Origin: an uncultured Candidatus Saccharibacteria bacterium
Lineage (GTDB): Bacteria; Patescibacteriota; Saccharimonadia; Saccharimonadales; JAGQNJ01
Reading direction: 5' to 3'
DNA: 64,000 nt
Assembly: GCA_964602865.1 (NCBI GenBank)
Contig: CAZRSX010000004.1
Coordinates: forward strand, 20,388 to 84,387
Shown here: positions 2,547-46,655 of the stretch, in pieces
Position numbering within the stretch: the stretch's first letter is position 1
Layout of the letters: each line of letters opens with the position of its first letter
Notes under the pieces: model-generated
What the model saw: the letters and a program-made list of their open reading frames with translations, nothing else
Databases searched by the model: none
Told to the model about the DNA's origin: nothing
Position numbers and translations under genes: made by a program

Positions 2547-2953
2547 TGGTGGAGCTGGTGGGTACTGCCCCCACGTCCGCAAGTTTATCGATGTTAGTCT
2601 TCTACAGGTTTAGTTTGTTTGAATACTTGAAGCTATGCGTAAAAACAAACAAAAGTACATAGCTCGCAGTCCTAAAGTCTTAGCGTATCTTATGGATCAT
2701 AAGACACGAGCAACCCTGGAAATATGGCGTGCACTAACACTACCAAGATATCGCGCTAGGCACGGCTTTGGTGTTTAAACTAAAGCTGTTGCGGGTTCGC
2801 GTACACCGAAAGCAGCTTGAAGGCTGTTTACAAATGCAGTTGAAAGACCGCGGCTTTTAGAAGTTGCATCTAAAAATTTTGCCATATAACGCTTAGCAAG
2901 CGACCTGCTGATCTAACTGATAAAGTCCAACGTCGAGCTTAAAATTCAGCCCC
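2547..2953 (-). ncRNA. ssrA: tmRNA (transfer-messenger RNA)
   Basis: Reverse strand begins GGGGCTGAATTTTAAGCTCGACG and ends GGACGTGGGGGCAGTACCCACCAGCTCCACCA. The acceptor stem has the G3:U70 pair. An internal tag-like frame ends ...ATALV-TAA (stop 2775-2777). The resume codon was not determined. Confidence 0.8.
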
Positions 2954-3369: not shown

Positions 3370-3828
3370 TTAATTGTTGCAGCTACCGAGGCGGGTGTCT
3401 TGGCAGGCTCGCTGGTGCATGACTTCCAGCATGTCTTGGAGCGCAGCCTGTTGGCTGGGGCTAAGCCGTTCGAACACCGGTGCATGATAATCATTAAGTG
3501 CTTTCATGGCTTTATCGACCAGCGCCTCGCCCTTGGCTGACAGCCCTGTGGTTTTTTCACGGCGATCTTTTTGGTTTGCCACGCTAGTGAGATAGCCAAT
3601 TTCATGGAGCATTTTTATCTGTCGACTGACGCTAGCTTCGGTTTGGCCAAGTTTCTTGGCGATTTGCTTTTGCTGCACACCCTGATGCCACTTGAGCGCC
3701 ATCAATATCTTGAACTGCGAAAAGCCGATATCCAGGCGTTCTTGCAGCAGCAAATCCGACTGGCGATCAAGCACATTCGACAAGTGATGCAACAGATAGC
3801 CGAGATTATTAATTGGTTGTCCATTCAT
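3370..3828 (-). CDS. MarR family transcriptional regulator
   Basis: 152 aa with a winged-HTH MarR pattern (GFSQFKILMAL...QKQIAKKLGQTEASVSRQIKMLHEIGYL...DRREK). Confidence 0.85.
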   Translation of the reverse strand: MNGQPINNLGYLLHHLSNVLDRQSDLLLQERLDIGFSQFKILMALKWHQGVQQKQIAKKLGQTEASVSRQIKMLHEIGYLTSVANQKDRREKTTGLSAKGEALVDKAMKALNDYHAPVFERLSPSQQAALQDMLEVMHQRACQDTRLGSCNN

Positions 3829-3907
3829 CCCGTTAGAATCCTCCTGTTGAAATTAGTTTTTGGTTATTCATAATCGTTATGCTTGTCACGACGTGAATTC
3901 TAACGGG
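3829..3907 (-). mobile_element. Miniature derivative of the GIY-YIG cassette (11-bp inverted repeats, no nuclease ORF) on the MarR start codon
   Basis: cccgttagaat (3829-3839) and attctaacggg (3897-3907) form a perfect inverted repeat. Flanks read ATGAG / ATGAA in gene orientation. Confidence 0.5.
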
Positions 3908-3992
3908 GCTCATCACACAAAATCCCTCAATTACGTATTACTTTACGCGTTAACCATTAGCACGTCAAGTAATCTTGCGGAGTTATCCACAA

Positions 3993-4781
3993 CTATTTAT
4001 AGCTGTTATACAGAGCGTACCACTGCTCTAGGGACAGTTCTTGGGCACGAGAGTTCGGATCGATGCCTGCTTTTTGGAGTAGTTCCTCGGCCTCTGGCTT
4101 CCCCATCTGTAGTCCACCGCTCAAGCTGCTGCGGAGCTTTTTACGCCGCTCGCTAAACCCGGCTTTGACAATACGAAAAAACTGCGTCGTATCAACATCG
4201 TTAAACAGGGGTGCGTGGCGGTAGACAAGTTTGATAACCTGCGAATCGACTTTTGGGGGTGGCGTAAACAGATGCGCCGGTACGACTTCACCGAGGCTCA
4301 CTTCACAATAAAACTGCACGCTGACAGCAAGCAACGACAGCTTGCCCGGAGCAGCCGCAATTCGTTCGGCTACTTCTTTTTGTACCAGTAGCGTCAAGCT
4401 ACTGGGCGGGTTGGCGGACTCAAGCAGCACCCGGAGTAAATTGCTGGTGAGGTAATACGGAATGTTGGCAACGACTTTGTAGCCCGCAGGCAACTGACTG
4501 GTATCAAACTGCAAGATATCGTCAGGCACTACCTTGACGTTGGTACCCCCGTAACGGGCGGCTAGTTTTAGTGCCAACGTTTGGTCGTACTCGACCGCAA
4601 CCACCTTGCCAGCATGGTTGGCCAGTACTGCGGTCAGCGTGCCCGGACCCGGACCGACTTCGAGCACGGTATCATGCGCGTGCACATCGGCAAACTCGAC
4701 AATGTGCTCAAGCGTTGGCTGGTCAGTCAGCCAGTGCTGGCCAAGCGTTTTGTTGGTGTGGGGCAGATCTACAGATTTAAT
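3993..4781 (-). CDS. rsmA: 16S rRNA (adenine1518/1519-N6)-dimethyltransferase RsmA/KsgA (start uncertain)
   Basis: VLEVGPGPGTLT SAM motif and NIPYY motif. The conserved N-terminal KTLGQHWL lies upstream of the first canonical start (GTG 4685). The frame is open to a TGA at 4803-4805. Only ATT (4781) or CTG (4766) are available as starts. Confidence 0.8.
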   Translation of the reverse strand: MKSVDLPHTNKTLGQHWLTDQPTLEHIVEFADVHAHDTVLEVGPGPGTLTAVLANHAGKVVAVEYDQTLALKLAARYGGTNVKVVPDDILQFDTSQLPAGYKVVANIPYYLTSNLLRVLLESANPPSSLTLLVQKEVAERIAAAPGKLSLLAVSVQFYCEVSLGEVVPAHLFTPPPKVDSQVIKLVYRHAPLFNDVDTTQFFRIVKAGFSERRKKLRSSLSGGLQMGKPEAEELLQKAGIDPNSRAQELSLEQWYALYNSYK

Positions 4782-5191
4782 AGTTTGAGTCCTGTTTTGG
4801 GGTCAATCGATTTCGTTAAGTTATTACCGTACCACCGGTGTAAAAAGATTTCACAGGTACCGCTGACCGTGATTTCGCGGACGTGGCCGCCGATGGTGGA
4901 TAAATCACCGCGCGAGAACACGCCGTGGATGTGAAAGGCCGGTTCTGCGTCAGTCCAGGTGAGATTGCCTTGTAGGCTCAAAATCTCCAATGGTTCGTCA
5001 GCAACCTGCCATTGGTATTCTTGGGTGTTTAGATCATAAAACCCGAGCTCGGCTGCACTGGCGCCACCCAAACCACTGATCCAGCAGCTTGAGAGCTGCT
5101 CGTCTCTGGCCAGGCGCACCAGCAACTCAATGACCTTCTCGCCTCGAGAAAGCCGGACAATATGATTGTAACCATCAAAGCGAAACTTCAT
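4769..5191 (-). CDS. PPC (DUF296) domain DNA-binding-like protein
   Basis: 140 aa. Pattern ...RLSRGEKVIELL...ISGLGGASAAELGFYD...LEILSLQGNL...HIHGVFS.. is typical of the PPC/DUF296 fold. Confidence 0.65.
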   Translation of the reverse strand: MKFRFDGYNHIVRLSRGEKVIELLVRLARDEQLSSCWISGLGGASAAELGFYDLNTQEYQWQVADEPLEILSLQGNLTWTDAEPAFHIHGVFSRGDLSTIGGHVREITVSGTCEIFLHRWYGNNLTKSIDPKTGLKLLNL

Positions 5192-5256
5192 CCCGTTAGA
5201 CCTTTAGTGTTTAAAAGTACGTATACATCGTGCATCATGGCTCTAACGGGATTCAT
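5191..5256 (-). mobile_element. In-frame internal-deletion derivative of the GIY-YIG cassette on the start codon of the PPC gene
   Basis: Reverse strand: ATGAATCCCGTTAGAGCCATGATGCACGATGTATACGTACTTTTAAACACTAAAGGTCTAACGGGATGAAG. The first 24 nt are identical to 43654-43677. It encodes MNPVRAMMHDVYVLLNTKGLTG*. Confidence 0.6.
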
Positions 5257-43553: not shown

Positions 43554-43653
43554 CCCTACGGTCTATACTACGTCCGTGTCAGCACCGATTCAAGCTCAAG
43601 CGTCAATTTTTGCACGTTTTACAACAGTTCTCAATGTGCGTAGAATAAAAGCA

Positions 43654-43936
43654 ATGAATCCCGTTAGAGCCATGATGTGCTATGTATATGTACTTCTGAA
43701 TACCAAGGGACAATTTTATATTGGTTGTACCTCAGACTTGAAAAGACGTATCGCTGAGCATAACAGTGGCAAAAGTACATATACGAAAACAAGAGGTCCG
43801 TATCGGCTTATTTATTACGAAGCTTGCTTAAATAGTCAGGATGCATTTGCAAGAGAACGATACCTTAAGTCAGGTATGAGCAGGCGATACATCAAGAACC
43901 GTACAAAACACTTCAGAGAGGCTCTAACGGGATGAA
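43654..43936 (+). mobile_element. GIY-YIG cassette bounded by 13-bp inverted repeats and ATGAA direct repeats
   Basis: ATGAA-TCCCGTTAGAGCC (43654-43671) ... GGCTCTAACGGG-ATGAA (43920-43936). Confidence 0.55.
43672..43935 (+). CDS. Small GIY-YIG nuclease family protein (UPF0213-like)
   Basis: YVYVLLNTKGQFYIGCTSDLKRRIAEHNSGK...LIYYE...A.ARERYLK. The upstream in-frame ATG at 43654 is also possible. The TGA stop overlaps the murB ATG (ATGA). Confidence 0.8.
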   Translation: MMCYVYVLLNTKGQFYIGCTSDLKRRIAEHNSGKSTYTKTRGPYRLIYYEACLNSQDAFARERYLKSGMSRRYIKNRTKHFREALTG

Positions 43937-45083: not shown

Positions 45084-46655
45084 GTGGCGCGGTTGCCGGT
45101 ACCGGGCAACGATGACGGAGCATGGGGTGATATCCTCAATGATTTTTTGAGTGTCGAGCTTAATGCTGACGGTACGTTAAAGAAAGCCTCGGCTATCACT
45201 TCGGCCCAAAACGCTGCTAATAACGCGTTGCCGAAATCTGATGTTGACACTGACATAACACTAGCCGCCAACAGCGACGATAAAGTTGCCAGCCAACGTG
45301 CCATAAAAACGTACGTTGACAACCAAGTTGCCAGCGGCGCCCCCGACGCGACCAGCACCACCAAAGGTAAACTACGCCTTGCTGGTGATCTCAGCGGCAC
45401 GGCTGACGTGCCGACCGTACCGGCGCTGGAACACAAGGTCAACCTGGCCGGCGACACCATGACCGGCAAGCTCACCGTACCGAGCCTTCAGGTGTCAGGC
45501 GGATCGCCAACCACCGGCTACGTCCTGATGAGCGACAATGTCGGCAATGCCACCTGGAGCCCGGTACCAAGCGCCCCGGTAACCAGCGTGGCCGGTAAAA
45601 CCGGTGTCGTAACGCTGGTAAAGGCCGATGTCGGCCTGGCAAATGCCGATAACACCTCCGACGCCAATAAGCCAATCTCCTCTGCCACGCAAACCGCGCT
45701 CAACGCTAAAGAAAATACCGCCAACAAAGGCCAGCCGAACGGCTACGCCAGCCTCGATGGTAGCGGCACAATCCCGGTTGCCCAGCTGCCCAACCAATCC
45801 GGCTCGTATATCCCTATCACCGCCAAGGGTGCCGCCAACGGCGTGGCCGAACTCGATGGCAACACGCGCCTGCCAACTGCCCAGCTGCCAAGCACCATAC
45901 CATTTGCCAATCTGCCGGTTGGCACCAGCGGCAGCACGGTTACAGCCGGCAATGATTCCCGGGTAGTAAACGCTATTCAAAGCTCCGCGCTCGACACCGA
46001 TAACACCCTGGACGCCAGCAGCGACTCTCGCATTGCCACCCAAAAAGCCACCAAGGAATACGTCGACAACCAGATTGCCAGCGGCACCGCGCCTGATGCC
46101 ACCACCACGACCAAAGGTGTCGTGCAGCTCACTGGCGACTTGAGCGGAACGGCAACCGCACCGACAGTCGTAGCTGCGGCTGGTGTTAAAAGCGCCACCA
46201 CCACCGTGACAACCAGCGGCGCAACGGCGCCAAGCAGCGGGCAATTTTTACGTGCCAGCAATAGCACCACCGCCACCTGGCAGGCTATTCCGCGAACGTT
46301 TGGCTGGTATTTCAACGACGAAGTAACAGTCGGCGACGCCCAGGGGCCAATCTACCGTCTGGACGCCAATGCGACAATCCTCGGCTGCGACATCAACGCC
46401 AAGGGTCCGCCGGCTCTGACCGCAGAGTTTGATATTAAGATCGCCAACGCAGCAACCGGACCCTTTAACTCCATCTTTTCTGCAACCCCAAAGATTACCG
46501 GCGGCGAATACGTGGCAGCCGGCAGCACGCTGTCGACGACAAATGTCAACGCCGGCATTTTTATCCGTTTTGATGTTATTGACCCCGGCGATGACAGCAT
46601 GGGCGAAAACGCCGCTGCCGGCATCACCGTTCAGCTAAGGTTACAAACACGATGA
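45084..46655 (+). CDS. Phage tail-fibre / minor-tail-like protein
   Basis: N-terminus LPVPGNDDGAWGDILNDFLSVELNADGTLK. Repeated ATQKATKEYVDNQIASG..DATTTTKG..QL.GDLSGTA..PTV. VAGKTGVVTLVKADVGLANADNTSDANKPIS. Confidence 0.7.
   Translation: MARLPVPGNDDGAWGDILNDFLSVELNADGTLKKASAITSAQNAANNALPKSDVDTDITLAANSDDKVASQRAIKTYVDNQVASGAPDATSTTKGKLRLAGDLSGTADVPTVPALEHKVNLAGDTMTGKLTVPSLQVSGGSPTTGYVLMSDNVGNATWSPVPSAPVTSVAGKTGVVTLVKADVGLANADNTSDANKPISSATQTALNAKENTANKGQPNGYASLDGSGTIPVAQLPNQSGSYIPITAKGAANGVAELDGNTRLPTAQLPSTIPFANLPVGTSGSTVTAGNDSRVVNAIQSSALDTDNTLDASSDSRIATQKATKEYVDNQIASGTAPDATTTTKGVVQLTGDLSGTATAPTVVAAAGVKSATTTVTTSGATAPSSGQFLRASNSTTATWQAIPRTFGWYFNDEVTVGDAQGPIYRLDANATILGCDINAKGPPALTAEFDIKIANAATGPFNSIFSATPKITGGEYVAAGSTLSTTNVNAGIFIRFDVIDPGDDSMGENAAAGITVQLRLQTR

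Follow-up and report, generated by a model that had tools for sequence, protein, structure and literature searches.

We analysed a window of 64,000 nucleotides, meaning the whole stretch of DNA presented here, from an uncultured Candidatus Saccharibacteria bacterium (contig CAZRSX010000004.1), in which a small open reading frame (ORF) for a GIY-YIG nuclease sits exactly on the start codon of the cell wall gene murB. MurB homologues put the window in the Saccharimonadales, within the Candidate Phyla Radiation (CPR, or Patescibacteria). An initial annotation, made from the sequence alone, had described this ORF as lying between terminal inverted repeats with ATGAA on both outer flanks. Indeed the sequence reads so: an intact insertion, 278 bp from start to start, occupies positions 43654-43936 on the murB start codon and is made up of some 273 bp proper to the element and a duplicated (A)TGAA. 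The inverted repeat had been given as perfect over 13 bases; it is perfectly complementary, but each arm is one base longer, so that 14 of 14 positions pair. The overlap of the nuclease TGA with the murB ATG is also as described, the ORF ending at 43935 and murB opening at 43932, and the two degenerate copies proposed elsewhere in the window were found on the starts of a marR gene and of a PCC-domain gene (Table 1). At Rfam gathering scores the window holds only tRNAs and a transfer-messenger RNA (tmRNA), with no match at any of the three copies.

Table 1. Coordinates of the element copies in the window, of the associated host features, and of one sub-family of short copies at other loci
Feature	Position	Strand	Remarks
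Host promoter-like motif TTTACA-17-TAGAAT	43618-43646	+	Ends 7 nt before the left ATG; motif also present at the empty murB sites L174 and L175
Left direct repeat ATGAA	43654-43658	+	Original host start codon, now the start codon of the nuclease ORF
Left terminal inverted repeat ATCCCGTTAGAGCC	43658-43671	+	Core CCCGTTAGA at 43660-43668; encodes the N-terminal leader (M)NPVRA
Intact stand-alone GIY-YIG nuclease ORF, 93 codons plus TGA	43654-43935	+	Pfam PF01541, 3.6e-15; core from an internal Met near 43672
Right terminal inverted repeat GGCTCTAACGGGAT	43920-43933	+	Core TCTAACGGG at 43923-43931; encodes the C-terminal ALTG
Right direct repeat ATGAA	43932-43936	+	ATG is the murB start; its TGA (43933-43935) is the nuclease stop
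Host gene murB, UDP-N-acetylmuramate dehydrogenase, 339 aa	43932-44951	+	FAD_binding_4 and MurB_C; intact; N-terminus MNIQKN as in orthologues
Internally deleted copy on the start of the PCC-domain gene (4769-5191)	5187-5256	-	ATGAA-T-CCCGTTAGAGCC, first ~13 nuclease codons, GG-TCTAACGGG-ATGAA
Degenerate short copy on the start of the MarR-family gene (3370-3828)	3824-3913	-	ATGAG-C-CCCGTTAGAATTC...AGGAGGATTCTAACGGG-ATGAA
Short-copy sub-family with inner repeat	L009:1544-1668; L019:625-752; L020:3302-3357; L043:4286-4411; L068:4260-4389		

Comparison with relatives revealed that the murB site can be empty. The nearest murB relatives, at loci L174 and L175 (72% and 70% MurB identity, respectively), are without the element. 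The divergent HTH_31 neighbour is retained in both, as is a roughly 100-nt spacer that can be aligned with the window, including the promoter GTTTTACAACAG...GTAGAATA, and both carry a single ATGAACAT, with one ATGAAC, where the window has ATGAA-(278-bp unit)-CAT. Similarly, another 37 murB loci of Saccharimonadales, taken from metagenomes, were all without the element (0/37 occupied). The initial annotation had proposed aligning murB orthologues in search of empty sites and had reasoned that mobility would be untenable if orthologous loci were always occupied; the alignment instead yields two empty sites with matching surroundings and 37 more loci that lack the element. These comparisons show that a small mobile element has inserted with target duplication at the murB start.

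The flanking repeats themselves carry the signature of a duplicated target. Among the 58 copies with xTG on both sides, all five cases that vary at position 4 have G on both sides (Fisher p=2e-7), position 5 gives five G/G, three G/A and no A/G pairs (Fisher p=1e-5), and left-right correlation is absent at position 6. Positions 4 and 5 track the second codon of the host gene, with ATGAA, ATGAG and ATGGA pairs all seen, and similarity between the flanking targets is limited to ATGRR. Position 1 is ambiguous: when it is not the same on the two sides, the base on the right pairs with the one directly preceding the left core and is therefore part of the inverted repeat, so that the duplicated segment is TGRR, possibly ATGRR. 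The claimed 5-bp duplication of ATGAA consequently stands as a target duplication, in that it follows the second codon and is single at empty sites, with its first base ambiguous and best written (A)TGAA.

Near-identical elements also occur at unrelated genes. For example, the elements at L057 and L065 are 95% identical over 285 nt, but their surroundings, compared over 600 nt to either side, are unrelated, and the hosts are the genes for GreA and a beta-CASP RNase, respectively. Within one metagenome-assembled genome (MAG), the copies L013 and L049 are 90% identical and are mutual nearest neighbours among 48 copies; one sits on a cytidylyltransferase gene with the repeat ATGAA and the other on secA with ATGAG, each repeat matching the second codon of its host. 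Of the three closest relatives of the window nuclease (77-81% identity), one lies on the start of a PCC gene, the second separates nusB from a NUDIX gene and sits on the NUDIX start, and the third separates atpA from atpG and sits on the atpG start. Taken across genomes, these comparisons show movement of the element between unrelated genes and, together with the empty orthologous sites, bear out the earlier claim that the locus carries the footprint of a transposed element. Some sites are occupied widely. The start of rmlA (MKGII..., glucose-1-phosphate thymidylyltransferase) carries a copy in many Saccharibacteria (L001, L002, L004, L007, L016, L021 and L084-L093), and some of these sites have a short copy after a full-length one whose right end has decayed, which suggests that the rmlA start is an old site or a hotspot.

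To describe the family, we scanned one genome per species, which returned 80 loci; the window was added for counts over 81 copies. Exact CCCGTTAGA...TCTAACGGG pairs flank a homologous ORF in almost all of the 80 loci, and the copies fall into 58 of full length (core spacing 257-274 nt) and 23 short ones (36-110 nt). The terminal repeat is 14 bp long and consists of an outermost pair, T:A or C:G, the 9-bp core and three inner pairs. In the 58 full-length copies each of the inner pairs (offsets 9-11) occurs as three to four Watson-Crick types with no or one mismatch, so the outermost and the three inner base pairs of the inverted repeat covary; rare variants of the core are compensated as well (CACGTTAGA/TCTAACGTG, CCCGTTACA/TGTAACGGG, CCCGTTAGT/ACTAACGGG and TCCGTTAGA/TCTAACGGA). 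Likewise, the terminal inverted repeats are conserved with covariation across 48 aligned copies, on which RNAalifold found the terminal stem alone to be conserved and no further structure. Tandem copies have one repeat in common. Of 180 exact 9-mers, 162 have an exact partner; in all, 176 have a partner, leaving four solo. With a partner at 176 of 180 occurrences, a chance inverted repeat and a general leader or ribosome-binding motif were ruled out; the initial annotation had held that a motif occurring freely as a leader, without its partner, would speak against mobility, and only those four solo occurrences are of that kind. A match of the ends to the integron attC consensus (GTTRRRY / RYYYAAC) is partial, no integrase is present, and attC was set aside.

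The short copies lend themselves to comparison with full-length relatives. In the window's copy on the PCC-domain gene the residual upstream ORF, MNPVRAMMHDVYVLLNTKGLTG followed by its stop, ends in an ATGA overlap, whereas in L176, a relative, the orthologous PCC start is occupied by a copy of full length; the window's short copy therefore arose by internal deletion in place. The copy on the marR start has an interior unrelated to the nuclease, which now contains an AGGAGG Shine-Dalgarno sequence for marR. Both copies are short and non-coding and carry the ends and the duplication of an autonomous relative, and they are thus comparable to miniature inverted-repeat transposable elements (MITEs). 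Where the interior of a short copy is unrelated, the ends and the flanking repeats are all that has been kept, which makes the ends the probable cis-acting sites.

Several variants of the family were also observed. One sub-family of short copies, found in distant CPR lineages (Table 1), has a second, inner inverted repeat on GCGATCGC, an octamer that equals the cyanobacterial HIP1 palindrome. A second layout, with the flanks TTTAC...GTRAA, occurs in a MAG labelled Nitrospirota (L067:3008-4531) and at L038, L055, L066 and L072; in L067 a GIY-YIG ORF (4028-4288) lies among four short hairpin copies, in an arrangement that recalls repetitive extragenic palindromes and their associated tyrosine transposases (REP/RAYT). 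Non-CPR taxonomic labels are attached to about 13 of the 80 loci, perhaps because of horizontal transfer or mis-binning. A 15-nt internal inverted repeat inside the window's nuclease ORF (43684-43698 / 43770-43784, 93% complementary), joining the YVYVL and STYT codons, is not kept in the 48-copy alignment and is probably coincidental.

The protein encoded on the murB start scores 56.5 bits against the Pfam GIY-YIG model PF01541 (cutoff 22.6) and is thereby a member of that superfamily; no NCBIfam family was above its cutoff. In an alignment of 35 homologues, residues Y10, Y12, Y22, G24, R32, H36, E56 and N82 are invariant or near-invariant. The columns of the GIY/YIG tyrosines, the arginine, the histidine, the metal-binding glutamate and the asparagine are thus kept, and the catalytic motif is conserved. 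The AlphaFold2 model (predicted local distance difference test score 83) has a beta-beta-alpha-beta-alpha core. By sequence the nearest solved structures are the UPF0213 proteins 1zg2 (1.4e-13) and 1ywl (7.5e-08), and Foldseek placed 1zg2, 1ywl and the Slx1 structure 7cq3 at ranks 1-3 for the model. The nuclease is therefore a stand-alone member, of about 90 aa, of the UPF0213 / YhbQ-Slx1 branch. Slx1 proper was ruled out, since the protein has only 93 aa and is without the C-terminal PHD/RING-type zinc finger. A GIY-YIG homing endonuclease of the I-TevI or group I intron type (TIGR01453) was likewise rejected, at 20.1 bits against a cutoff of 56.05 and over residues 11-39 only; Rfam detected no intron RNA at the element.

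Close homologues of about 93 aa number in the hundreds and are found mainly in Patescibacteria. A profile search against 1.84 billion cluster representatives gave 3,296 clusters at 50% identity with E<=1e-10, with Patescibacteria in the majority, and the viral contigs of IMG/VR contained no relatives, leaving carriage by phages unsupported. One study (PMC12455944) names a GIY-YIG domain protein among genes that, by its prediction, passed from Patescibacteria into other bacteria. In the element family the nuclease is 85-93 aa long. The 35 homologues, which are 58-81% identical, have in common the N-terminus MNPVR(A/D/T) and the C-terminus (A/S)LTG, and the linker after the N-terminal leader varies in length despite these conserved termini. 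Both termini are translated repeat arms, and their conservation is therefore at the level of DNA. The protein also has a family-specific basic C-terminal helix (GMGKRYLKNRLK...). A few gene calls depart from this plan: P0098 has a doubled MNPVR leader, probably from tandem copies, and P0255 and P0260 are calls of 600-655 aa that contain the nuclease domain, probably through read-through or fusion with host genes.

Across the 81 copies the right flank presents ATG in 63 and GTG in nine, and in 63 this codon begins an ORF of 60 aa or more. Roughly 80% of copies occupy the true start of housekeeping genes that are unrelated to one another; besides AtpG, their products include SecA, arginyl-tRNA synthetase (ArgRS), GreA, a beta-CASP RNase, RmlA, a Mur ligase, a GT4 glycosyltransferase and a cytidylyltransferase. 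By Pfam the latter host proteins are complete, with N-terminal domains that begin at residues 2-5. Full-length copies at host starts are all co-oriented with the host gene, and the occupied starts are either promoter-proximal or, for many insertions, internal to an operon at an ATGA stop/start overlap.

Both the start and the stop of the nuclease ORF are supplied by the duplicated target, whose left copy provides the ATG and whose right copy provides the TGA. Of 37 murB genes of Saccharimonadales (L094-L133), about 30 have a -10 box, TATAAT or TATACT, 7-9 nt before the ATG and no Shine-Dalgarno sequence. In the window, murB transcribed from the promoter of Table 1 is probably expressed leaderless, as perhaps are many other genes of Saccharimonadales. 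Because this promoter lies 7 nt before the left ATG of a probably leaderless gene, the nuclease ORF has captured both the promoter and the leaderless start. The suggestion that the element inherits host initiation signals thus agrees with the TTTACA-17-TAGAAT before the left ATG, which is conserved at the empty sites. Such a context is not general: upstream contexts are mixed, with a -10 box at leaderless spacing in 13 of 57 cases and a motif resembling Shine-Dalgarno in 14 of 57, which rules out either context as a requirement. Therefore, the mode of initiation is not the determinant of the target.

In 50 of the 58 full-length copies the nuclease stop overlaps the host start as (A/G)TGA. The TGA of the left repeat also closes an upstream ORF in 16 of 52 cases, and these insertions are therefore in operon ATGA overlaps, with the coupling chain preserved; ATGGA repeats contain no TGA, and four of the five ATGGA cases are on short copies. 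By this geometry the host gene becomes the downstream cistron of an ATGA stop/start pair, and we infer that its translation is coupled to that of the nuclease. The right end TCTAACGGGATGA places TAA, TGA and the host ATG in three different frames; translation from upstream accordingly stops no later than the host start or, in the third frame, would join the host. Among 16 short copies with a left flank of the ATG type, the residual upstream ORF ends at the TCTAACGGGATGA stops in eight and earlier in the other eight, and none is fused to the host protein (0/16). The terminal stem is part of the minimum-free-energy fold both of the transcript (z = -2.4) and of the single-stranded DNA (z = -3.4) and reaches the host AUG; according to these folds, translation through the nuclease ORF would open it. 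More speculatively, AUGAA on both sides of a stable stem might allow a ribosome to transfer from the left to the right AUG by initiation bypass.

Residence at start codons could arise by targeting or by survivorship. The element loci contain 214 ATGAA, ATGAG or ATGGA sites at called gene starts, 573 in intergenic DNA and 2,988 within genes. A selection-only null, with random insertion and the loss of intragenic insertions only, predicts about 27% of copies at starts as compared to the roughly 80% observed, with gene calling that is crude. This excess suggests an active preference for start codons; however, intergenic insertions may be costly too, and residence at start codons may be partly or wholly survivorship. 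The start-codon targeting put forward in the initial annotation therefore holds as residence, at about 80% of copies, but not as an exclusive use of promoter-proximal starts, given the many internal ATGA overlaps, and what appears as targeting may be survivorship.

The element has the architecture of an insertion sequence (IS) or MITE: terminal inverted repeats, a target duplication that varies between copies, copies at non-homologous sites, and presence or absence at orthologous sites. No transposase of any known class (DDE, DEDD, HUH, serine or tyrosine) is encoded, and the GIY-YIG nuclease is the only protein that full-length elements encode. We infer from this coding content that the nuclease is the mobilising enzyme. 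In the proposed mechanism it would bind the conserved inverted ends, either as duplex half-sites or as a hairpin or cruciform stem, and would cut the element boundaries and make staggered cuts at TGRR targets; the move would then be finished by repair and ligation in the host, giving the duplication of 4-5 bp. Slx1, the nearest characterised relative, is structure-selective for branched and stem-loop DNA (PMC7017083). Survival at starts and the single orientation would probably be largely the work of selection, as there the host is unharmed and the nuclease expressed. We consider it probable that the whole is best explained in this way, as a mobile element on the murB start with the nuclease as its putative mobiliser and with survival at starts aided by selection. 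A bolder version, to which we would give slightly less than an even chance, is that the GIY-YIG protein of 85-93 aa is itself a transposase and the element thereby a prokaryotic DNA transposon of a new mechanistic class, the smallest autonomous one known; the protein would act on hairpin or palindrome ends with a 4-nt stagger at (A)TGAA and would be specialised for ATGA, such that the target duplication completes its ORF and coupled translation of the host genes is kept.

Several observations weigh against a mobile element driven by this nuclease. To our knowledge GIY-YIG enzymes are hydrolytic and have no strand-transfer chemistry, so that transposition would not be completed by the nuclease alone, and the 93-aa protein is without a separate DNA-binding domain. 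Identical proteins give no instance of recent jumps to multiple sites, P0120 (103 contigs) and P0041 (20 contigs) being at one locus each. Sites such as the rmlA start are occupied over many lineages, which looks like long vertical inheritance or repeated homing. In the second layout the flanks extend the inverted repeat, have no direct repeat and lie off start codons, although this layout is a minority found mainly in MAGs with non-CPR labels. Finally, the 9-bp core CCCGTTAGA / TCTAACGGG is nearly invariant across phyla, but the copy census demanded exact 9-mer cores, and the apparent invariance of the ends is inflated to that extent.

The strand-transfer step for which GIY-YIG chemistry offers no known counterpart could come from a separate recombinase acting in trans, with the nuclease as a passenger or a retention factor that, for example, cuts empty sites. 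The joined ends, ...TCTAACGGGA-TGAA-TCCCGTTAGA... (junction sequence TCTAACGGGATGAATCCCGTTAGA), resemble a core site with inverted arms and an asymmetric spacer; such arms with an asymmetric overlap of 4-5 bp would account for the duplication and the fixed orientation, and the single repeat common to members of tandem arrays also fits. Yet full-length elements encode the GIY-YIG protein alone, its gene accompanies the ends in very distant lineages and is under purifying selection, no recombinase gene recurs beside the examined loci, and the target flanks have no similarity to the arms. We regard this explanation as unlikely.

Other explanations dispense with transposition. A free-standing homing endonuclease gene would cut the empty allele of its own locus and spread by recombination, with the inverted repeat serving RNA folding or expression. 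The GIY-YIG fold is a classic homing-endonuclease fold, there are weak matches to a PHROG 'homing endonuclease' and to TIGR01453, identical proteins stay at one locus over many samples, and copies at the rmlA and PCC starts recur in several lineages. Homing to one allele is nevertheless hard to reconcile with near-identical elements at unrelated genes, once within a single genome, with a flanking repeat that tracks the host codon, with flanks that have no similarity beyond ATGRR, and with short derivatives of unrelated interior that keep only ends and repeats; nor does the protein have the DNA-binding module of the I-TevI type (20 bits against a 56-bit cutoff). We hold this to be improbable. 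Least probable, and to our minds barely credible, is a domesticated translational leader, in which a conserved stem-loop and an upstream ORF regulate the downstream gene and mobility has been lost. The terminal stem reaching the host AUG is the sole conserved structure, the ends stop upstream translation in all frames, and some sites are stably inherited, as a leader would have it; but the element is absent from 39 orthologous murB loci, copies 90-95% identical lie at unrelated genes, and the nuclease is intact and conserved, so that a leader role may be a side-effect rather than the origin.

Elsewhere in the window, a tmRNA gene (2547-2953, minus strand, Rfam 65.6 bits) is separated by about 400 bp from the 3' end of marR, and six tRNA genes are dispersed over the window. 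Downstream of murB, an ORF of 523 aa (45084-46655, plus strand) contains blocks like 'K(A/T)YVDNQ(V/I)ASG...TTKG...L(A/T)GDLSGTA..P.V' and resembles a repeat protein of the fibre or tail-fibre type.

If the nuclease-mobilised element is real, it would represent a type of mobile element outside all current IS and transposon classifications, about 280 bp long and with a GIY-YIG nuclease as its only gene. It would account for the small proteins annotated by the thousand as 'GIY-YIG nuclease family protein' in CPR/Patescibacteria genomes, whose recurrent MNPVR and LTG termini would be coding shadows of the inverted repeat. It would also be a case of selfish DNA that persists in very compact genomes without gene breakage, by way of the ATGA motif and a borrowed start and stop, leaving essential genes such as murB, secA, argS, atpG and greA as coupled downstream cistrons. 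In practical terms, gene callers mis-start or fuse host genes at element sites, and the conserved 9-bp ends make the family easy to search for. So small a nuclease, specific for a sequence or a structure and with a defined DNA site, might be developed into a tool, and the long-orphan UPF0213/YhbQ branch gains a concrete candidate DNA substrate. The initial annotation knew of no described family of this kind, and we found no published description of a start-codon GIY-YIG element family in the full-text literature searched, which lacks most subscription journals; the family is apparently undescribed.

In its architecture the family is most readily compared with insertion sequences and MITEs, including the Correia elements of Neisseria and the Rickettsia palindromic elements (RPEs), with which it shares terminal inverted repeats, a short target duplication and tandem insertions. 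Like IS/MITE pairs, it comprises autonomous copies and short non-autonomous ones that have only the ends in common, and, like RPEs and Correia elements, its copies are tolerated in or beside genes and co-transcribed with them. Unlike insertion sequences, its sole gene encodes a GIY-YIG protein and not a DDE, HUH, serine, tyrosine or DEDD transposase, it lies in one orientation on start codons or ATGA overlaps, and its ORF borrows start and stop from the duplicated target; at about 280 bp it is also smaller than any autonomous IS known to us. Very small size, hairpins, a fixed target of 4-5 nt, a single orientation and abundant short palindromic derivatives recall IS200/IS605 and the REP/RAYT system (REPtron), but there is no HUH/Y1 transposase (TnpA), one end-to-end stem takes the place of the sub-terminal hairpins of IS200/IS605, and a direct repeat is present where IS200/IS605 has none.

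With free-standing GIY-YIG homing endonuclease genes, such as those for the Seg proteins of phage T4 and the I-TevI family, the element shares a selfish nuclease insert between or ahead of host genes and expression from host signals; it differs in having no DNA-binding domain and in its inverted ends, target duplication, MITE-like derivatives and many unrelated target genes, where homing endonucleases have a single cognate target. The element thus belongs neither to these genes nor to the insertion sequences, IS200/IS605 or REP/RAYT. The protein resembles UPF0213, YhbQ, YazA and Slx1 as a stand-alone URI domain of about 90 aa, but is set apart from that branch by its repeat-encoded termini (MNPVR.../...LTG), its basic C-terminal helix and the absence of the Slx1 zinc finger, and no mobile behaviour of UPF0213 proteins was reported in the literature searched. 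Penelope-like retroelements are the only established transposable elements that integrate with a GIY-YIG nuclease; they differ in being eukaryotic, in encoding a reverse transcriptase, and in architecture and mechanism. We therefore rate the family as a transposon/MITE architecture with an unprecedented enzyme and niche.

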